Assembly: GCA_964493305.1 (NCBI GenBank)
Contig: CAZBLW010000001.1
Coordinates: 384,037-448,036 of the forward strand
Direction of reading: 5' to 3'
Origin: an uncultured Gammaproteobacteria bacterium
GTDB lineage: Bacteria > Patescibacteriota > Patescibacteriia > S139-126
DNA length: 64,000 bases
Shown here: in pieces, positions 36,949 to 47,648 of the stretch
Numbering within the stretch: position 1 is the stretch's first letter
Layout: the number at the start of each line of letters is the position of its first letter
Notes under the pieces: generated by a model
The model's input: only the letters and a program-made list of their open reading frames with translations
The model's database searches: none
Told to the model about the DNA's origin: nothing
Position numbers and translations under genes: made by a program

Positions 36949-37371
36949 ATGTGGATACTATTTGCCTTACTGGCAGCAATAAGCGCTGCTCTAGTAGCTA
37001 TCTTTGGTAAAATCGGTTTAAAAAATATTGACTCAACTTTAGCTACAACTATCCGTTCATTTGTTATGGCAACATTTTTATTGGTGGTCAGTTGGTTATT
37101 GGGTAAATGGCGTAATTTCGATTGGCAGAATATACAAAACCGAGATTGGTGGTTAATTGTGTTAGCTGGTATTGCCGGTGCTTTATCTTGGTTGTTTTAT
37201 TTTTATGCTCTTAAAACTGGGGCTGCCACTAAAGTGGCTGCTATTGATCGACTAAGTATAGTATTTGTTGTTTTATTGGCCGGGATTTTTCTAAGCGAAG
37301 GTTTTAGTTGGAAAAGTATTTTTGGCAGTCTGTTGATGGCTGTGGGGGCAATTTTAATAAGTTGGAAATAA
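36949..37371 (+). CDS. small DMT-superfamily (EamA/SMR-like) 4-TM transporter
   Basis: Four predicted TM helices in 140 aa. Confidence 0.45.
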   Translation: MWILFALLAAISAALVAIFGKIGLKNIDSTLATTIRSFVMATFLLVVSWLLGKWRNFDWQNIQNRDWWLIVLAGIAGALSWLFYFYALKTGAATKVAAIDRLSIVFVVLLAGIFLSEGFSWKSIFGSLLMAVGAILISWK

Positions 37372-37839
37372 ATGAATTTAACAATCGGAAAATTAGCACC
37401 AAATTTTACTTTAACTGACTATCAAGGCAGAAAATATTTACTAAGTGACTACCATGGTCAGTGGGTGGTATTGTATTTTTATCCCAAAGACAATACACCT
37501 GGCTGTACTATTGAAGCTTGTGCATTTCGAGACAACTTTTCTTTATATAAAAAAAATAAAATAAATTTATTTGGAATTAGCGCTGATAATAGTAATTCCC
37601 ATGAAAAGTTTATCAATAAATTTTCCTTACCTTTTATTTTATTGTCAGATGTCAGTAGGGAAGTAATAAAAAAATATCAGGTTCATAAAGTTAAAAATTT
37701 ATTTGGTAAAAAAGTACCATCTATTGTTAGGCGAACCTACGTGATTGACCCCCAAGGTAAAATTTTTAAAATTTATGAAAATTTTGATTTAACTAAACAC
37801 CCCTTAGCTATTATTTCGGATATTAAGTCTAATCAGTAA
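37372..37839 (+). CDS. bcp: thiol peroxidase Bcp (peroxiredoxin)
   Basis: YPKDNTPGCTIEACAFRD peroxidatic Cys motif. Confidence 0.8.
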   Translation: MNLTIGKLAPNFTLTDYQGRKYLLSDYHGQWVVLYFYPKDNTPGCTIEACAFRDNFSLYKKNKINLFGISADNSNSHEKFINKFSLPFILLSDVSREVIKKYQVHKVKNLFGKKVPSIVRRTYVIDPQGKIFKIYENFDLTKHPLAIISDIKSNQ

Positions 37840-37906
37840 TCAATAAAACTCGTTTTTTGGTCATAATTATAATTAGCTTATAAAAAGTTTATATAGTTAC
37901 ACATAT

Positions 37907-37935
37907 TTGACAGAATAGCAAAAATTTGGTATACT
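37907..37935 (+). promoter_or_regulatory. consensus sigma70 promoter TTGACA-N17-TGgTATACT (extended -10)
   Basis: Perfect -35, 17-nt spacer and TGn extended -10, about 25 nt upstream of the 37963 start. Confidence 0.6.
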
Positions 37936-37962
37936 TATAATAAGTAGATAAAAGTTTAAAGT

Positions 37963-39084
37963 ATGCCAGATAATGAATCAATTTTAGAAAAAGTCATTGC
38001 CACTCAAATTAAGGAGGAAAAAGAGGTGTTTAACCCCAAGTTAATTGTGGAAAAATTAGCTGCTGGTTTACCTGATCGAGAAAAAAATGTTATTTATTTA
38101 CGTCATGGTCTCCAGGAGAATTCTGATAAATATACCTTGGAAGACATAGGTAAAATTTATAATATCACCAGAGAAAGGGTCAGACAGATTGAAGTTTCTA
38201 CAATTAAACTGATGAAAAAAAATTTAAAGGCTAACAATGACCTAAATCAATCTTTGTCAGTAGTAGAACAAATTATTAAAGATAGTGGCGGAGTTATTGA
38301 AAATAGTGAGTTAATTGACTTAGTTAAAGGTTCAATTTTAGAAAAAATCGAAACTAATTTTGTAGTTTTTTTCCTGGAGTTAATAAAAGACCAGTTTTTA
38401 CAAGTTAAAGATACTAAAAATATTAAAGCTGGCTGGCAGTTGCCTGGTTTTAATTTAGAAATATTGGAAAATATAATCAGTCAAACCGAAGAAATTGTCA
38501 AAAAAGCTGATAAATTATTTTCTGCTCACGAACTTTGGTTGGCTTTTAAAAATGGTGTTGATATTAAACAGTGGCCTCTAGATTTAAGTGAAGAAATATT
38601 TTTATCTTTTATCAGATTGTCTAAAAAGTTAAAAGTGAATCCTTTCAATGATTGGGGACTTAAACATTGGAATTTGATCACCCCCCGGAGAATGAATGAT
38701 AAAATATATTTAGTTTTGAAACACAATGAGCATCCTTTACACTTTAGAGAGATTGCCAAAAAAATAAATGAAGCCAACTTTGATGGTAAAAAAGCTCACG
38801 CAGCAACAATTCACAATGAACTAATTTTAGACCATAACCGTTACGTACTAATCGGCAGGGGAATTTATGCTCTTAAGGAATGGGGTTATAAACCTGGTGT
38901 AGTAGCAGATGTGATCGAAGATATAATTAAACAATCTGACCAACCCCTTAATAAAAATGAAATAATTGCAGAAGTTTTAAAGAAAAGATTGGTCAAAGAT
39001 AGTACTATTGTTTTGGCTTTAATGAATAAAAAAAGATTTACCAAAAATCATGATGGCACTTATAAATTAGCACAGGATCAATAA
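37963..39084 (+). CDS. protein with N-terminal sigma-70 region 4 (4.1+4.2) HTH fused to about 280-aa uncharacterised domain
   Basis: REKNVIYLRHGL is region 4.1. TLEDIGKIYNITRERVRQIEVSTIKLMKK is region 4.2. No region 2 is present. Confidence 0.5.
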   Translation: MPDNESILEKVIATQIKEEKEVFNPKLIVEKLAAGLPDREKNVIYLRHGLQENSDKYTLEDIGKIYNITRERVRQIEVSTIKLMKKNLKANNDLNQSLSVVEQIIKDSGGVIENSELIDLVKGSILEKIETNFVVFFLELIKDQFLQVKDTKNIKAGWQLPGFNLEILENIISQTEEIVKKADKLFSAHELWLAFKNGVDIKQWPLDLSEEIFLSFIRLSKKLKVNPFNDWGLKHWNLITPRRMNDKIYLVLKHNEHPLHFREIAKKINEANFDGKKAHAATIHNELILDHNRYVLIGRGIYALKEWGYKPGVVADVIEDIIKQSDQPLNKNEIIAEVLKKRLVKDSTIVLALMNKKRFTKNHDGTYKLAQDQ

Positions 39085-39086
39085 CT

Positions 39087-40607
39087 ATGGTGATTGACCT
39101 ATCATTTTTAAATTTAAATCCCAAAATGATTTACTGGATGGTATTAGTGGTGCTGAGTATCTTGGCTCTATTTTTTTTGTATTTTATTTTTAAATTCTTT
39201 ATTCAATTTTTTTGGTTACCAGCCAGAAAAGCCAAATATTTACAAGCAACTAAGTTTATCTTGTTGGCAATTGACATTCCCAAAAACAACGAACAGTCAC
39301 CCAAGGCGGTTGAGCAAGTTTTTGCCACTCTAGCTGGTACATTAAGCGGACCAAATTTATACGAAAGGTATTGGTTAGGCAATCACCAGTTATCATTTAG
39401 TTTGGAATTGGTCAGTCTGGAAGGCTATATCCAGTATATAATTCATTCTCCGGAAAAATATCGTGATGTAGTGGAAGCAGCTTTTTTTGCACAATATCCT
39501 GATGCAGAGATTATGGAAATTCCTGATTATGTGAAAAATTTTCCAGATGATTTTCCCAACGATACTTATGATTTATGGGGGACAGATCTAAAATTGGGCA
39601 ATAAAAATCCTTATCCGATTAGAACCTATCCCAGATTTGAACATACATTATCACAAGAAATAAAAGATCCTTTAGCTTCGTTGTTGGAAGTAATGTCACA
39701 CTTGAGACGGGGTGAATACGCCTGTTTACAATGGGTTATTACCCCCACTGGAGATAGTTGGAAATTACAATGTGAAAAAGAGGTAAAAAAAATAATCGGC
39801 GAAAAAGCCCCAGAAAAAAAAGATATTGGCTATTATATGACTTATCCGTTTTTATCTTTTATGAAATTTTTAGGTGATACCTTGGTTGTAAATGCTGAAG
39901 GTACCGCTGATAATCAGGCAAAGCGTGAGGATGCACCCAATAAAATGTTGTATTTAACCAGTGGACAAAGAGATGTTCTGCAAGGCATTGAAGAAAAGAT
40001 GTCAAAAATAGGTTTTTTAGCCAAGGGACGGTTTGTTTATTTGTCACGACGTGAATTATTTGATAAAAACCGAGGCGTAGCACCAATTATGGGTGGTTTA
40101 AATCAGTTCAATACTCTAAATATGAATTATTTTACCAAAGTGAAAACTACCACTACTACCGCAGATTATTGGCGTGTTGAAAAAAGAATCGCCAAAAAAC
40201 AAACTAAGATAATCAAAGCTTATAAACAGAGAATTGGTGATAGTAAATTTGGCAACAATCCTTTTGTATTGAATATTGAGGAATTAGCTACGGTTTATCA
40301 TTTTCCCGCTATGACCGTAAAAGCACCCTTAGTGAAAAAGGTAGAAAGTAAACGTTCCGAGCCCCCCGCTGCTTTGCCAGTTGATTTTTCTGCAGTAGAA
40401 GCAGATGAAGTCACAGTAGTTTTACCAGCTGAGAAGACTGAGAAAAAAAATGCAGAACCGATTAAAAATGATTCTGCTATGAATGATATTGTAGAAGTAC
40501 AAGTCGTAACTGGAGCTGATCATAAAATTTCTTCTCAGGAAGAAGTTTCTTTGCCCGTTGATGAGCAAGTCAGCAAAGGTCAACCACCAACTAACTTGCC
40601 ATTTTAA
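39087..40607 (+). CDS. hypothetical single-pass membrane protein with large soluble domain, 506 aa
   Basis: N-terminal TM MIYWMVLVVLSILALFFLYFIFKFF. The C-terminal third is low-complexity and acidic/Lys-rich. Confidence 0.5.
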   Translation: MVIDLSFLNLNPKMIYWMVLVVLSILALFFLYFIFKFFIQFFWLPARKAKYLQATKFILLAIDIPKNNEQSPKAVEQVFATLAGTLSGPNLYERYWLGNHQLSFSLELVSLEGYIQYIIHSPEKYRDVVEAAFFAQYPDAEIMEIPDYVKNFPDDFPNDTYDLWGTDLKLGNKNPYPIRTYPRFEHTLSQEIKDPLASLLEVMSHLRRGEYACLQWVITPTGDSWKLQCEKEVKKIIGEKAPEKKDIGYYMTYPFLSFMKFLGDTLVVNAEGTADNQAKREDAPNKMLYLTSGQRDVLQGIEEKMSKIGFLAKGRFVYLSRRELFDKNRGVAPIMGGLNQFNTLNMNYFTKVKTTTTTADYWRVEKRIAKKQTKIIKAYKQRIGDSKFGNNPFVLNIEELATVYHFPAMTVKAPLVKKVESKRSEPPAALPVDFSAVEADEVTVVLPAEKTEKKNAEPIKNDSAMNDIVEVQVVTGADHKISSQEEVSLPVDEQVSKGQPPTNLPF

Positions 40608-40610
40608 TTT

Positions 40611-42419
40611 ATGAAATTTAATCCCGAAGTAACCTATTTTGGAAAAACAAATTTTCGTAACCAAACACGAGAGTTTGGTATTAAGCGTGACGATCGCAGG
40701 CGTCATATGTATGTGATTGGGAAAACTGGTATGGGCAAATCAGAGATGTTAAAAAACATGGCCATTCAAGACATTAACAACGGTAACGGTCTGGCAGTAG
40801 TTGATCCACATGGAGAATTGGTTGAAGATTTATTAAACGCTATACCAGCCCAGCGGATAAATGATGTAGTTTATTTTAATCCAGCTGATGTTGATTATCC
40901 CTTGGCTTTCAATATTTTAGAATCAATTGATGAGCCACATCAGAAAAATTTAGTGGCCTCAGGTTTGATTGGTATTTTCAAAAAATTATGGGCTGATTCT
41001 TGGGGGCCACGTTTGGAATACCTATTACGCAATGCCATTTTGGCATTACTTGATTATCCGGGAGCTACTTTGTTGGGAGTGACAAGAATTTTGGTAGATA
41101 AAGATTATCGTAAAAAAGTTGTAATGAAAATTAAAGATCCGGTGGTGAAAAGTTTTTGGACTCAAGAGTATCCCAAATACAACCAACAGTTCCAGGTTGA
41201 GGCTATTTCGCCAATCCAAAATAAAGTTGGACAATTTTTATCTCTATCTTTAATAAGAAATATTGTTGGACAAGTAAAATCAACTATTGATTTACGTGAA
41301 ATTATGGATAATAAAAAGATTTTATTGTTAAATTTATCTAAAGGTAGAATTGGTGAAGATGCCTCGGCATTATTGGGCGCGATGATGATAACAAAAATTC
41401 AAATGGCAGCCATGGCCAGAGTTGATATTCCTGAGAATCAACGTAAAGATTTTTATCTTTATGTAGATGAATTTCAAAATTTTGTTACTAATTCATTTGC
41501 TGATATTTTATCAGAAGCGAGAAAATATAGATTAAATTTAATAATCGCCCACCAATATATTGCTCAGCTGGTGACCAGTGATTCAACTCGAGTAAGGGAT
41601 GCTGTATTTGGTAATGTCGGTACTTTAGTGACTTTTCGCGTCGGCGCAGATGATGCTGAATTTTTGGCCAAAGAATTTACTCCTACTTTTGATGAAACTG
41701 ATTTAGTAAATTTAGCTAAATACGATGTTTATTTGAAACTGATGATTGATGGTATTGCTTCCACTCCATTTTCGGCAACTACTTTACCCCCGTTGCCTAA
41801 AGACCAAATGAATGAAGATAAAATTATTAAAGTTACCAGAGAAAGATACGCCACCAAACGAGAAATTATTGAAGATAAAATTGCTCGTTGGGCAGGATTT
41901 GGTGATGAAGAAGAACCTGTTGAAAAAAAAGTACCTATAGAGAAAGAACGTGAACCTAAAAAGAAATTAGTTAAAACTGTGGACACTACATCTATTCAAA
42001 CTTATCCGGCCATTTGTAGTAATTGTCAAAAACCAATTAATCTAAAATTCAAACCAGATGGTATTAGACCGGTTTTTTGTCCTGACTGTTTAAAGTTGTA
42101 TAAACAACAAAAAATTTCCTTACCGAAAAACAATCAACCTTATAAAGAAGGTGATATAAAAAACTCTCAGTTAGTTAAAGCTGCTTTTACGCCAGTAAAA
42201 AATAAACCCAACAAAGAAATAATCATTGAGGAAGTTATTAAAGACACTCCAGCAGAAATTTCCTTGGCTGAAGCATTGGGTAAACTACAAATAAGTGAAA
42301 AAGTAGTAAATCCAAAAAAAACAAAAGATAACTCTACTGATTTTAAAGTAGCAGCTGATAAGATTAAACCCCAAACTAATAAACAGACTTTACAACCAGG
42401 TCAAAAAATAAAATTTTAA
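40611..42419 (+). CDS. soluble VirD4/TraD/TraG-like (HerA-FtsK superfamily) P-loop ATPase with C-terminal C4 zinc ribbon and Lys-rich tail
   Basis: Walker A VIGKTGMGKSE. Walker B LYVDEFQNF. ARKYRLNLIIAHQ and GTLVTFRVGADD resemble the TraG-D_C/DUF87 core. CSNCQ...CPDC ribbon. Confidence 0.65.
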   Translation: MKFNPEVTYFGKTNFRNQTREFGIKRDDRRRHMYVIGKTGMGKSEMLKNMAIQDINNGNGLAVVDPHGELVEDLLNAIPAQRINDVVYFNPADVDYPLAFNILESIDEPHQKNLVASGLIGIFKKLWADSWGPRLEYLLRNAILALLDYPGATLLGVTRILVDKDYRKKVVMKIKDPVVKSFWTQEYPKYNQQFQVEAISPIQNKVGQFLSLSLIRNIVGQVKSTIDLREIMDNKKILLLNLSKGRIGEDASALLGAMMITKIQMAAMARVDIPENQRKDFYLYVDEFQNFVTNSFADILSEARKYRLNLIIAHQYIAQLVTSDSTRVRDAVFGNVGTLVTFRVGADDAEFLAKEFTPTFDETDLVNLAKYDVYLKLMIDGIASTPFSATTLPPLPKDQMNEDKIIKVTRERYATKREIIEDKIARWAGFGDEEEPVEKKVPIEKEREPKKKLVKTVDTTSIQTYPAICSNCQKPINLKFKPDGIRPVFCPDCLKLYKQQKISLPKNNQPYKEGDIKNSQLVKAAFTPVKNKPNKEIIIEEVIKDTPAEISLAEALGKLQISEKVVNPKKTKDNSTDFKVAADKIKPQTNKQTLQPGQKIKF

Positions 42420-42422
42420 ATT

Positions 42423-43352
42423 ATGCACCAACTTACTAAACAGACCATAGCCGATATAAAAAATTTAAAAATCCAAGGAGCTACCAATGTAGTCTTAGCT
42501 ATAATCACCACTTTGGATAAATTGATAAAAGAAGTATCTTTTGAAAATTTTTTAGTACTAAAAAAATTTATTTTAGCTGAAACTTGGTTATTGGTTACTG
42601 CTCGACCAACCGAACCGTATGCTCAGAATTTGTACTATTTTTTGAATAAGAATATAAAAAATTTTAATCAACCAAAGGATAATAAAAAATTTAAAAGTAG
42701 TTTAAAAAAGTGGTTACAAGATTACCAAAATTATATTTTAAAAAACGATCTTAAAATTATAAGGTATGGCGTAAAAACATTGCGTCCCTATAAAAATATA
42801 TTAACTCATTGCCATTCTTCTACAGTGGTAAAAATAATCAAGTCGCTCCACCACACCAACAAAAAAATCCATGTGTTTGCAGATGAGACCAGGCCACTTT
42901 TTCAAGGTAGAGTGACTGCGAAAGAGTTACATCAGGCCGGTATCAAGGTAACTCAAATAGCTGATAGTGCAAGTGGTTTTTTGATTTCATCATTCTCAGG
43001 TCGGGATTTAATGATGGAGGCAATAGTGGTCGGAGCTGATGCAATCAAAACTAATGGCAGTATTATCAATAAAATTGGTACTTATGATATTGCTGCCAGT
43101 GCTTTTTTGAATAAAATACCTTTTTACGTAGCGACTAGTCTCTTGAAATTTGATTTTAAAAATCAAGTAAAAATCGAACAAAGATCTGATCGTGAACTAT
43201 GGCCAAATAAACCTGCCAATTTAAATATTCTTAATTTTGCTTTTGATTATGTACCGGCCCAGTTTATTACTGGTTTAATTACTGAGGTAGGTACTGTCAA
43301 ACCTAAGCAAGTCAAATCTTTGGTAAACAAACATTACCCATGGCTAAAATAA
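42423..43352 (+). CDS. ribose-1,5-bisphosphate isomerase (eIF-2B alpha/beta/delta-like family)
   Basis: GADAIKTNGSIINKIGTYDIA family motif. The assignment over MtnA rests on operon context with RuBisCO and AMP phosphorylase. Confidence 0.7.
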   Translation: MHQLTKQTIADIKNLKIQGATNVVLAIITTLDKLIKEVSFENFLVLKKFILAETWLLVTARPTEPYAQNLYYFLNKNIKNFNQPKDNKKFKSSLKKWLQDYQNYILKNDLKIIRYGVKTLRPYKNILTHCHSSTVVKIIKSLHHTNKKIHVFADETRPLFQGRVTAKELHQAGIKVTQIADSASGFLISSFSGRDLMMEAIVVGADAIKTNGSIINKIGTYDIAASAFLNKIPFYVATSLLKFDFKNQVKIEQRSDRELWPNKPANLNILNFAFDYVPAQFITGLITEVGTVKPKQVKSLVNKHYPWLK

Positions 43353-43957
43353 AAGATGATATCCAGTATGTAGTCTTTGATATTTATGGGGTAATCATAA
43401 CTGCTGGCCACAATATTAGGGATATATTATTTCCGATATTTCCTAAACACAAAAGTCATCGTTTTAGTCGTCGTATCTATCACTATTATGCAGAAAATAA
43501 ACTAAAACGAGCCAACTTTTGGTCACTACTGGGAAATTTTGATAGTTCTTTGGAAAATAAATTTTATGAACGACATCGTTTGGATAAAGATTTTTATCAA
43601 GTTATTGAGCAGTTAAAAAAGCAAAGTAAAAAATTGTATATTTTATCCAATATTCCTCAGGAATGGTCAGAATATTTAAATAAAAAGTTTAAGTTTGATA
43701 AGTATTTTTCTGGTACTGTTTTTTCTTGGCAAGTTGGTAAACGTAAGCCCGATCCAAAAATTTTTAACTATTTAGTTAAAAAATATACTTTACCAGTAGG
43801 TAAAACTTTGTTTATTGATGATAATATTGATAATATTAGAATGGCTAAACGTTTGGGTTTTAGGACTTGTTGGTTCAATCGAGATAAGATCGACCTTAAA
43901 CCCACTAGTGCCGATTTTATAATCAATGAATTAAAAAAATTAATAGAAATTATATGA
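43340..43957 (+). CDS. HAD-IA family hydrolase with variant motif I (DIYG)
   Basis: Motif I VVFDIYGVI, motif II YILSN, motif III KRKPDP, motif IV FIDDNIDN. Confidence 0.6.
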   Translation: MAKIKDDIQYVVFDIYGVIITAGHNIRDILFPIFPKHKSHRFSRRIYHYYAENKLKRANFWSLLGNFDSSLENKFYERHRLDKDFYQVIEQLKKQSKKLYILSNIPQEWSEYLNKKFKFDKYFSGTVFSWQVGKRKPDPKIFNYLVKKYTLPVGKTLFIDDNIDNIRMAKRLGFRTCWFNRDKIDLKPTSADFIINELKKLIEII

Positions 43958-45246
43958 AAAAATTTACCACTTCATATCAGGGTTTTATAGATCAAAAATA
44001 CAAACCCAATTTAGACAAAGAATTTTTAGTTACTTATCATGTTAAACCTACTCCGGGGCAAACATTTGAAACGGTTGCCGAGGCCATAGCTGGTGAATCA
44101 TCAATAGGTACTTGGACTCATTTGGAAACTCTCTCGGTTGCTACTAAAACAAAATTAACACCTCATGTCTATGTAGTTGATAAAAATCGTGGTTTTATAA
44201 AAATTGCTTATCCTTTAGCATTGTCTGAAATTGGTAATCTACCCCAGTTATTGTCCTTTTTAGGTGGTAATATATTTAGCATGAAAATAGTCGACCGTTT
44301 ACGTTTGGAAGATATTGAGTTTCCCAAAAAATATATTAATGCTTGCTTAGGTCCTTATCATGGCATAGCCGGTATCAGAAAAATAATGAATGTTAAACAA
44401 AGAGCCTTAGTTGGCAGTATAATCAAGCCCAAAGTTGGTTTGGATGTAACTGAAACCGCTGCGGTTGCTTATGAAACCTGGCGGGGTGGGGTAGATGTAA
44501 TTAAAGATGATGAAAATTTAACTTCACTGGTTTTCAATAATTTTAATGATCGCGTTGATCAATTAATAGCTACTAGAAAAAAGGTTGAAAAAGAAACTGG
44601 CGAAAAAAAAGTTTTTGTTTTCAATATAACCGCTCCTTATGATGTTGCGCTACAAAGAGCTCGTTATGTAAAAAAAAGAGGAGGACGAGTGGTTATGGTT
44701 GATATTGTCGCTATGGGTTGGTCAGCTATTCAAACCATCAGAAAACAAAATTTAGGCCTAATCTTACATGGTCACCGGGCGGGACATAGTATGTTTACCA
44801 AAGATCCTAGTCACGGGATGAGTATGTTGGTGCTGGCAAAGTTATCCAGACTTGCCGGTATTGATCAATTACATACCGGTACAGTGGTTGGTAAAATGGA
44901 AGGCACGGCTCATGAGGTTGATTCTTTGAATGATTTTTTGCGAGAGGATGGCGGAGAAATTGATTATTTAAGAGAGAATTGGTCAAAATTAAAACCAGTA
45001 ATGCCAATTGCCTCAGGCGGGCTACATCCCGGCTTGGCCGCGGAACTGATAAAAATTTTGGGTCGTAATTTAATTATTAATTTCGGTGGTGGTATTCATG
45101 GTCATCCCAACGGTTCTTTTGCTGGTGCTGTTGCTGCTCGTGACGCGGTTGAAGCAGCTTCTCTGGGAGCAAATTTACATACCTATGCCAAAAATAGACC
45201 AGAGTTAAAAACAGCTCTTGAGTATTGGTCTAATGTAAAAAATTAA
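43954..45246 (+). CDS. rbcL: ribulose-1,5-bisphosphate carboxylase large subunit, form II/III type
   Basis: GGVDVIKDDE, IKPKVGLD, ILHGHRAGH and the GG loop. Confidence 0.85.
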   Translation: MKKFTTSYQGFIDQKYKPNLDKEFLVTYHVKPTPGQTFETVAEAIAGESSIGTWTHLETLSVATKTKLTPHVYVVDKNRGFIKIAYPLALSEIGNLPQLLSFLGGNIFSMKIVDRLRLEDIEFPKKYINACLGPYHGIAGIRKIMNVKQRALVGSIIKPKVGLDVTETAAVAYETWRGGVDVIKDDENLTSLVFNNFNDRVDQLIATRKKVEKETGEKKVFVFNITAPYDVALQRARYVKKRGGRVVMVDIVAMGWSAIQTIRKQNLGLILHGHRAGHSMFTKDPSHGMSMLVLAKLSRLAGIDQLHTGTVVGKMEGTAHEVDSLNDFLREDGGEIDYLRENWSKLKPVMPIASGGLHPGLAAELIKILGRNLIINFGGGIHGHPNGSFAGAVAARDAVEAASLGANLHTYAKNRPELKTALEYWSNVKN

Positions 45247-45258
45247 TAATTAATAAAA

Positions 45259-46758
45259 ATGTCCTTTTTCTTAAAATCAAAAAAATTGGATTTTTCCACG
45301 GGAAATGAACCGGTGGTAGTCATAAACGATCAAGAAGCCGAATTTTATGGGGTAATAGCCGGTGATAGAATTCAGTTGACTTGGGATAAGCGTACCAAAA
45401 GAATTGCTGAAGTCAGAACAACTACCAGTAAAGTTAAACCAGGGGAGTTGGGTTTGTTTAAAGAGTTATGGAATAAAAAAGATGTACCAGCCAATGGTGA
45501 TATAGTTGAGGTGGAAATTGTTTCCCGACCACCGTCAATTCAAGCCATTAGAAAAAAGTTATTTGGCAAAAAATTGAACTATGAAGAAATTTACTCAATT
45601 ATCAAGGACATAGTTGATGATCGTTTATCTGAAATCGAGACGACTTACTATGTAGCTTCTAGCTATTTGCGTGATTATACTTTAAACGAACTTTATTACA
45701 CTTCCAAAGCAGTAGCTGAGACTGGCGAAATGCTCAATTTAAATGTACCGGCAGTTGATAAACACTCAGTTGGAGGGTTACCGGGAAATCGAACTACTAT
45801 GGTAGTTGTGCCAATAGTTTCTTCATTGGGATTATATATACCCAAAACATCTAGTCGGGCAATTACTTCACCTTCTGGTACAGCGGATACCATGGAAGTT
45901 TTAGCACCAGTAACCTTTACCATGTCGGAGATTAAGAAAATTGTAAAAAAAGTTAATGCTTGTATGGTATGGGGTGGAGGGGTCAATTTAGCGCCTGCTG
46001 ATGATAAAATTGTCCGTCTTACCAGGCCATTAGGAATCGAACCATATGATAAAATGATTGTTTCTATTATGGCTAAAAAGGTAGCCATGGGTGTTGATTA
46101 TTTGGTACTTGATTTACCGATTGGTCCCACTACAAAAATTCCGCAAAAAAAATTTGCAGATGAGATTGAAAAAAAATTTATGTTTTTAGGAAAAAAATTT
46201 GGTATGAAGGTTAAGGTTATTAGGACGCCATCTTTTGAACCAGTGGGTAGAGGTATAGGTCCAGCTCTTGAGGCTAGGGATGTATTGCGAGTTTTGCAAC
46301 AAAAAGAATTGCGACCGATTGATTTGGAAAAAAAGGCTATTAGATTGTCAGGTTATTTATTGGAATTAGCTGGTTACTGTAAGGTTGGTCAAGGTGCTGC
46401 CATAGCTCAACGTCAATTAATTAGTGGCGAGGCAGATAAACAGATGAAAAAGATAATATCGGCTCAAGGAGGTAAGGCAGATATTGATTCCGATGAGGTA
46501 GCTTTGGGCGCTTTAAATTATGAAATTCATGCTAAGAAGAGCGGTCAGATTAATTTTATAAACAACCGTGCCATCAATGAAATTTGTGTAAATCTAGGAG
46601 CACCAGGTGATAAGATTGCCGGTATTCATATGCATGTTCATTATCTTGACAAAGTAAGAGTGAAAGATAAACTTTTTACTCTTTATGCTCAGAGTCAAGA
46701 TCGTATCAAGCTAGCGCTCAAAGCTTTAGAAAAAAACGTAATTGTTGAAATTAAATAA
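45259..46758 (+). CDS. AMP phosphorylase (thymidine phosphorylase family, DeoA homolog with N-terminal extension)
   Basis: TP-family core DKHSVGGLPGNRTT. At 499 aa it matches the archaeal AMPpase size. Confidence 0.75.
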   Translation: MSFFLKSKKLDFSTGNEPVVVINDQEAEFYGVIAGDRIQLTWDKRTKRIAEVRTTTSKVKPGELGLFKELWNKKDVPANGDIVEVEIVSRPPSIQAIRKKLFGKKLNYEEIYSIIKDIVDDRLSEIETTYYVASSYLRDYTLNELYYTSKAVAETGEMLNLNVPAVDKHSVGGLPGNRTTMVVVPIVSSLGLYIPKTSSRAITSPSGTADTMEVLAPVTFTMSEIKKIVKKVNACMVWGGGVNLAPADDKIVRLTRPLGIEPYDKMIVSIMAKKVAMGVDYLVLDLPIGPTTKIPQKKFADEIEKKFMFLGKKFGMKVKVIRTPSFEPVGRGIGPALEARDVLRVLQQKELRPIDLEKKAIRLSGYLLELAGYCKVGQGAAIAQRQLISGEADKQMKKIISAQGGKADIDSDEVALGALNYEIHAKKSGQINFINNRAINEICVNLGAPGDKIAGIHMHVHYLDKVRVKDKLFTLYAQSQDRIKLALKALEKNVIVEIK

Positions 46759-46844
46759 AATTTGACTATTTAAATTTATCTATCAATCGTATGGTGAGTT
46801 TATTTTTTAAAAATTAAAAATTACAAAATTAAAAATTTTAATAT

Positions 46845-47648
46845 ATGTGGTGGCAAACAGCAATTTTAGGTATTGTTCAGGGTTTAACAGAATTTTTACC
46901 TATCTCTTCATCTGGACATTTATTGTTGTTGGAAAAATTTACTAAACTACCTGATTTCGGTTTGACTTTTGATGCTTTTTTACACCTGGGTACTTTGTTG
47001 GCAGTAATAATTTATTTTCGTCAAGATATTTATTTATTGATAAAAGCTTTATTTGATCGGCAAGATCAGATTAATAAGCGGTTTATTGGCATTATATTAA
47101 TTAGCATAGTTCCGGCTGGTTTGGTTGGTTATTTGTTAAAAGATATAATTAGTGAAGATTTAAGATTACCAGGTTTGGTTTTATTTAATTTAATATTTTG
47201 GGCACTGGTAATGTGGTGGGCAGATAATTATATTGAGAAACAAAAAGTTAGCTTAAATGATTTAAAAAAAATATCTTGGAAACAAGGTTTAATTATTGGC
47301 TTAGCTCAAGTCTTAAGTTTATTACCCGGTACTTCACGTAGCGGTATCACCATAACCGCAGGTTTATTTCAATCTTTATCTCGACAAGTCGCAGCTCGTT
47401 TTAGTTTTATTATGAGTATTCCTTTGATTGCTGCCGCTGGTTTTTTAAATTTAATTACTTTAATTAATCAGCCAGAAGATATAGTAATAACCAATTTAAT
47501 TGTCGGTTTTTTAGCCAGTTTTATCACTGGTTTTTTGGCGATAGCTTGGTTACTAAAAATATTAGCTACTAAAAATTTAAAAATATTTGTCTGGTACAGA
47601 TTGTTTTTAGGATTAGTTTTGTTTATTTTTGTATATTTACTTAAGTAG
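46845..47648 (+). CDS. uppP: undecaprenyl-diphosphate phosphatase
   Basis: GLTEFLPISSSGHLLL signature. Multi-TM. Confidence 0.9.
   Translation: MWWQTAILGIVQGLTEFLPISSSGHLLLLEKFTKLPDFGLTFDAFLHLGTLLAVIIYFRQDIYLLIKALFDRQDQINKRFIGIILISIVPAGLVGYLLKDIISEDLRLPGLVLFNLIFWALVMWWADNYIEKQKVSLNDLKKISWKQGLIIGLAQVLSLLPGTSRSGITITAGLFQSLSRQVAARFSFIMSIPLIAAAGFLNLITLINQPEDIVITNLIVGFLASFITGFLAIAWLLKILATKNLKIFVWYRLFLGLVLFIFVYLLK

Follow-up and report, generated by a model that had tools for sequence, protein, structure and literature searches.

A split VirD4-type ATPase and its DUF8128 membrane partner in a conserved chromosomal operon of Patescibacteria: a candidate housekeeping translocase

The 64-kb stretch of DNA analysed here (the window) carries a compact three-gene unit encoding a sigma-region-4/HARE-HTH protein, a DUF8128 membrane protein and a P-loop ATPase (Table 1). 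The first two genes are spaced by 2 nt, and the TAA stop codon of the second is followed by one TTT codon and then by the ATG of the third; the coordinates, lengths and 3-nt spacing that an earlier note on this DNA gave for the 506-aa and 602-aa pair agree exactly with the sequence. A candidate promoter, matching consensus at 11 of 12 positions and with an extended -10 TG, is the top site within positions 37300-47000 and sits in the sole sizeable intergenic gap (123 bp). The GC content of the unit (0.33-0.35) is similar to that of its flanks, with no compositional anomaly, and since homologues of the 506-aa protein number in the thousands and the ATPase has at least 8,000 candidates, both reading frames are genuine genes and not chance. 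In the window's large ORFs we found no relaxase, VirB4, VirB6-like protein or integrase, as had been claimed, so the view that the genes are not part of a conventional conjugative element is upheld.

Table 1. Features of the unit, with positions in the window
Feature	Residues (aa)	Position (nt)	Strand	Basis
Candidate sigma-70-type promoter of the unit, TTGACA-17 nt-TG-n-TATACT		37907..37935	+	consensus match
373-aa protein, putative DNA- or RNAP-binding partner		37963..39084	+	Pfam matches
Sigma-70 region 4 of 373-aa protein	34-85	38062-38217	+	PF04545 (Sigma70_r4) 1.1e-13
HARE-HTH of 373-aa protein	247-307	38701-38883	+	PF05066 4.1e-9
506-aa DUF8128 (PF26449) protein, membrane-anchored N-terminal half		39087..40607	+	homology
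Predicted single TM helix, N-out/C-in	~14-44	39126..39218	+	hydropathy, flanking charge
Cytoplasmic alpha/beta core, VirB4-N-terminal-domain-like fold	55-433	39249..40385	+	
Invariant NIEELATVYHFP of DUF8128 core		40272-40307	+	
Junction-like EPPAALP of DUF8128 core		40359-40379	+	
Variable, acidic, disordered linker	434-499	40386..40583	+	conservation, pLDDT, charge
Conserved C-terminal tip PPTNLPF (family PPxNLP[F/I/V]), candidate ATPase tether		40584..40604	+	
602-aa soluble TrwB/VirD4-like P-loop ATPase, motor half		40611..42419	+	Pfam, PDB sequence matches
Motor core	1-430	40611..41900	+	
Walker A GKTGMGKS	37-44	40719-40742	+	
Walker B YLYVDEFQNF	284-291 (YVDEFQNF)	41454-41483	+	
SEARKYRLNLIIAHQ with R304, Q315		41511-41555	+	
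FGNVGTLVTFRVGADD of motor core		41607-41654	+	
CxxC-x17-CxxC zinc ribbon, C-terminal tail	469-493	42015..42089	+	PF23477 3.2e-8; TIGR04272
Conserved tail motif EISLAEAL (consensus EISLxEAL in most aligned ATPase homologues)	549-556	42255..42278	+	
Conserved C-terminal tip PGQKIKF (family PGxxIKF)	596-602	42396..42416	+	

In PDB sequence searches the matches of the 373-aa protein were limited to region 4 of RpoD/SigA; the HARE-HTH is the most strongly conserved part of its family. The 506-aa protein probably belongs, by homology, to the DUF8128 family, which comprises 3,327 clusters at 50% identity; precomputed PF26449 matches cover most homologues at 40-76% identity, plus the syntenic neighbours in two other loci (L002 and L003). 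It has one TM region (aa ~10-46, Kyte-Doolittle maximum 2.76), and its AF2 model has a single long helix (aa 12-54) and a core with pLDDT >90. Across the family the residues flanking this helix carry a net charge of -0.9 at the N-side and of +2.5 at the C-side; because of this bias, and because paralogues join the domain straight onto the cytoplasmic ATPase, we place the large DUF8128 domain in the cytoplasm, which runs counter to the ectodomain supposed earlier. We assign its structural match to the VirB4 N-terminal domain (residues 15-400 of VirB4; PMC9259494), because the VirB4 C-terminal domain 4ag5, TrwB and HerA were all within the structure library, yet are missing from the list of matches. 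By its model, DUF8128 sets a domain of the TrwK NTD fold ahead of a motor, as VirB4 does. Its linker is unconserved and varies in length (pLDDT <50; 14 D+E versus 6 K+R), and in the tip P501 and P505 are invariant, with N503 and L504 conserved in at least 90%. The PPxNLP tip occurs in 48 of the 52 loci where the ATPase is adjacent versus 6 of the 18 where it is not (Fisher p = 2e-6).

The ATPase carries the motifs noticed before, namely Walker A, YVDEFQNF (Walker B), ARKYRLNLIIAHQ (aa 303-315) and VGTLVTFRVGADD (aa 336-348), and has no TM helix (best 19-residue Kyte-Doolittle mean 1.39). The HMM search that the earlier note had proposed returned PF10412 (6.7e-13; 48.7 bits versus a cut-off of 20.5), PF12696 (8.7e-7) and PF01935 (1.7e-5), all above gathering scores, and the sole significant PDB matches by sequence are TrwB (1.7e-7) and DotL (7e-5). 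Across 35 diverse homologues G37KTGMGKS, D286, E287, R304 and Q315 vary hardly or not at all; R304 and Q315, on which the proposed check of arginine and sensor residues turns, are invariant and align with R375 and Q386 of TrwB (chain numbering plus 70), and the protein has the Walker A/B and arginine/glutamine sensor positions of a TrwB-type nucleotide-binding domain. Walker A and Walker B, between which T4CPs have an all-alpha domain inserted, lie ~240 residues apart; in a 46%-identical fused paralogue the matching stretch (aa 495-622) is helical in the model, and 368 of 420 TrwB residues superpose. In the zinc ribbon C469, C472 and C490 are invariant and C493 is conserved in at least 90%; the ribbon is found in 38 of 52 paired loci, and the strict form of the PGxxIKF tip in 27 of the 52, being missing from Moranbacteria-type homologues. 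Median identity of the ATPase is 60% (80 species-level loci).

The gene pair is one protein cut at a domain junction, each half having gained a disordered tail. Single chains that combine PF26449 and PF10412 are frequent among Patescibacteria, with examples from Berkel-, Falkow-, Gottesman- and Saccharibacteria, and Bacillus phage G encodes one too. Their alignment to the pair is co-linear (hhalign E 1e-56 and 5e-181), with the two alignments abutting at the junction in both BLASTP and hhalign, and phrog_5156 spans both window proteins in order. The fused form was modelled as one compact chain with an ordered junction (pLDDT 87, pTM 0.79), its junction motif ‘P-NLP’ sitting immediately ahead of the ATPase N-terminus, and the gaps between split genes are chiefly 1-9 nt or small overlaps. 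The earlier pairing of a membrane protein with a VirD4/TraD-clade ATPase stands as a functionally coupled pair, but not as a novel pairing of unrelated parts, as it is a split single-chain protein.

In its split form the unit is found on chromosomes and is widespread, in no fewer than 589 species-level genomes, with housekeeping genes on its flanks and secDF upstream in 45 of 80 loci (56%). The ATPase gene adjoins the DUF8128 gene in 52 of 70 loci (74%) and is non-adjacent in 26%; the sigma-like gene lies directly upstream of DUF8128 in 44 of 77 (57%) and is missing there in 43%, and the three-gene unit proposed earlier is in this sense syntenic in distant Patescibacteria. A tblastn search of 72,556 plasmids gave no match, and viral contigs a single marginal one, so that the unit is nearly absent from them. 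No VirB4 or PrgI-like gene was found within 6 kb in 82 split-unit loci (at tblastn-level sensitivity), and neither there nor in the 64-kb window is the ATPase associated with a relaxase or a mating-pair-formation T4SS. The earlier note had held that T4SS genes adjacent in relatives would make this an ordinary coupling protein: this is so in none of the 82 loci of split orthologues, but a fused paralogue (L087) does adjoin a PrgI/VirB4 cluster, which suggests a possible link to the CPR T4SS. Among phages, the CampHawk version adjoins an actin-like segregation protein and a Replic_Relax protein, and the phage G version a VirB4-type ATPase (gp155).

Orphan genes of this kind are already on record. 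Quinonero-Coronel et al. 2025 (PMC12102498) report 5,713 VirD4-type homologues in 2,918 of 3,035 Patescibacteria genomes (96%, versus 80% with VirB4, a surplus of ~500 genomes), only 148 of the 5,713 being near virB4, and raise possible exaptation; the window ATPase is almost certainly one of them. The same paper gives the Southlakia VirD4-type homologue (split or fused form) as non-essential for epibiotic growth and the T4SS as essential; the main text of PMC10633639 makes no mention of which paralogue this Tn-seq result concerns. About two T4CP homologues occur per Patescibacteria genome, and the T4SS-linked one seen is fused. The novelty claimed earlier is reduced accordingly: the orphan VirD4-type homologues were already published, and what appears undescribed so far, and is described in none of the passages of PMC12102498 consulted, is the VirB4-like domain of the partner, the relation between split and fused forms and the conservation of the operon. 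Neither DUF8128 nor PF26449 is named anywhere in the literature searched.

We propose that the pair is a split, membrane-docked VirD4/VirB4 (FtsK-HerA) ring ATPase acting as a T4SS-independent, housekeeping translocase that handles DNA and arose by exaptation of a conjugative coupling protein, a reading in which we place about as much belief as doubt. DUF8128 supplies the N-out/C-in anchor and the VirB4-NTD-like fold, and the downstream protein the complete TrwB-like motor. The two halves would reassemble at the inner membrane face, where the PPxNLPF tip, as the former junction, may help to tether the motor; the motor would hexamerise as TrwB does and, powered by ATP, drive a polymer through its pore. 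Bringing in cargo or partners may be the task of the zinc ribbon and the tail motifs; the co-transcribed sigma-region-4/HARE-HTH protein could serve as a DNA-binding adaptor, and the fused paralogue would serve the CPR T4SS. A housekeeping, T4SS-independent role is the most likely because the operon is near-universal, highly conserved and chromosomal, and is without T4SS linkage. TrwB, TraD, FtsK and HerA, the closest characterised relatives, move DNA; these relatives, the two HTH-type domains of the partner gene and the phage neighbours together suggest DNA as the cargo. Several observations count against this reading: DUF8128 has one TM helix per subunit and the operon encodes no channel protein, a part of the loci has no sigma-like gene upstream, another has the ATPase elsewhere, and the synteny with secDF could be a sign of protein export instead.

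A conventional coupling role in trans for the CPR T4SS is quite possible, because the fused paralogue at L087 adjoins a T4SS and the CPR T4SS is mostly without a linked coupling protein. The corresponding account, in which the unit is the ordinary T4CP of a Patescibacterial T4SS, encoded far from virB4 and feeding effectors or DNA to the VirB4/VirB6 channel needed on hosts, is one that we lean against but take seriously. The T4CP sequence signatures and fold of the motor argue for it; most T4SSs need a T4CP, its gene is often unlinked from virB4, and because VirB4 occurs in 80% of Patescibacteria and only 148 T4CP genes lie nearby, some distant T4CP presumably serves the T4SS (PMC12102498). 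By analogy, the VirB4-NTD-like domain could dock on VirB3, VirB8 or VirB4 as the VirB4 NTD does (PMC9259494). Against this reading stand the absence of T4SS genes from the window and from the 6 kb around the split units, the surplus of genomes with T4CP homologues over those with VirB4 and the dispensability of the Southlakia t4cp beside an essential T4SS (both again from PMC12102498). The 60% conservation of the ATPase across classes and its synteny with secDF and housekeeping genes would also be unusual for T4SS parts, and of the roughly two homologues per genome, the one seen T4SS-linked is a fused one.

An FtsK/SpoIIIE-like or competence-type DNA pump, for chromosome segregation or clearing at division, or for ComEC import in nucleotide scavenging, seems to us quite unlikely; it is a specific sub-case of the housekeeping translocase, in which the HTH protein would act like the FtsK gamma domain. 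The membrane anchor with its separate HTH protein, the phage homologue beside an actin-like segregation protein and a weak NCBIfam match to CedD (1.1e-7), annotated as a DNA-translocating ATPase, are consistent with such a pump, as may be an analogy with DNA import, which VirB4-family ATPases power in the ComB system of H. pylori and the archaeal Ced/Ted systems. However, Saccharibacteria also carry the unit (L074) yet have FtsK (TM7x papers), the ATPase has no Pfam FtsK_SpoIIIE match, and none of the loci examined links the unit to comEC or to genes for pili or division. That the genes form a HerA/MADS-type anti-phage defence module, or a decayed conjugative or integrative element, is highly improbable. 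The ATPase belongs to a family typical of mobile elements, PADLOC matches the ATPase to mad8 (5e-14) and to HerA models, and the sigma-like protein matches MzaA; but the former matches span only the generic P-loop core and the latter only region 4. Moreover, the unit keeps the same housekeeping neighbourhood in its 589 or more species, has the GC content of its flanks, is found in no plasmid and almost no viral contig, and in the loci examined has no nuclease, Sir2, methylase, integrase or relaxase partner. Thus the membrane-associated defence module that the earlier note had entertained is unlikely, because conservation is near-universal, syntenic and chromosomal, in housekeeping contexts.

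A bolder extension of the housekeeping translocase, and an unlikely one, is that the unit represents a third deep lineage of T4SS-superfamily ATPases, combining a VirB4-type N-terminal domain with a VirD4-type motor in a T4SS-free, universal housekeeping machine. Were this true, it would be an intermediate, still extant, from the time when VirB4 and coupling proteins diverged; the machine could, for example, be a motor importing or partitioning DNA in organisms unable to make nucleotides, with the sigma-region-4/HARE-HTH protein as DNA-loading factor and the C-terminal tips as docking peptides. Patescibacteria account for much of the diversity of bacteria and are host-dependent, with a T4SS essential for their lifestyle, and nearly every genome has about two ‘coupling-protein’ genes away from the T4SS. 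Our analysis gives these orphan T4CP genes an anatomy, in that a membrane-anchored domain resembling the VirB4 N-terminus always accompanies them, as a fusion or as a separate protein, the split form being a conserved operon with a DNA-binding-type protein and conserved, docking-peptide-like tips. A vague ‘orphan T4CP’ label thereby becomes something experimentally addressable, a fold is assigned to a large domain of unknown function, and there is a bearing on the divergence between the two signature ATPases of type IV secretion.

Among known systems, membership of FtsK/SpoIIIE was rejected, as the motor signature, multi-pass N-terminal domain and gamma (KOPS-binding) domain are lacking, and that of HerA likewise (HAS-barrel N-terminal domain, HerA motor and NurA/effector partner); for MADS/HerA-type defence in PADLOC only generic ATPase models match, amid housekeeping neighbours and phylum-wide synteny. 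A weak partial similarity of 115-160 residues to EccE of the T7SS (with its FtsK-like EccC motor) is a lead only, there being no sequence relation and no other T7SS genes. VirB4 (TrwK of R388; VirB3-VirB4 fusions) shares the order of a TM segment, a ~350-400-aa alpha/beta NTD and a RecA-like motor of the same superfamily. In contrast to VirB4, the window motor has a VirD4-type signature: neither window protein has a Pfam match to AAA_10, P-loop_TraG or CagE_TrbE_VirB, which do match the true VirB4-type proteins in L087 and phage G (gp155); scores against NCBIfam VirB4-like models are far under cut-offs; and profiles of either protein gave no VirB4 match in PDB, nor did tblastn of plasmids. The TrwK-like NTD/CTD arrangement and co-encoded VirB3, VirB6 and VirB8 are lacking as well. 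TrsD, compared by description, is likewise separately encoded and resembles the N-terminal part of VirB4; its homologues mostly adjoin virB4 (1,664 of 2,272 in PMC12102498), whereas DUF8128 adjoins a T4CP-type motor.

The T4CPs (VirD4/TrwB/TraD/TraG; PF10412, PF02534, PF12696) resemble the unit in motor sequence, Walker A/B, the R375/Q386 equivalents and membrane attachment at the N-terminal end of the system. TrwB has two TM helices and DUF8128 one, and the N-terminal TM domain that T4CPs carry in the same polypeptide is here a sole helix on a separate protein. The list of T4CP domains in the abstract of PMC7431656 is without the ~360-aa VirB4-NTD-like domain of DUF8128. Unlike T4CPs, the window ATPase has a zinc-ribbon tail and no relaxase or T4SS linkage, and unlike those borne on plasmids or ICEs, the unit is a chromosomal core gene. 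The fused DUF8128-T4CP proteins of Patescibacteria and phage G-like phages (phage G gp156, phrog_5156) are single polypeptides of 725-995 aa that have neither of the long C-terminal tails and no zinc ribbon or PGxxIKF tip (P0425 stops at the motor core), and gp156 is without the N-terminal TM helix. Their contexts vary, L087 being T4SS-linked, L086 and L088 in housekeeping surroundings and the phage G protein beside a VirB4-type ATPase; they are homologous to the pair over both halves and share its NIEELA-HFP and P-NLP motifs.

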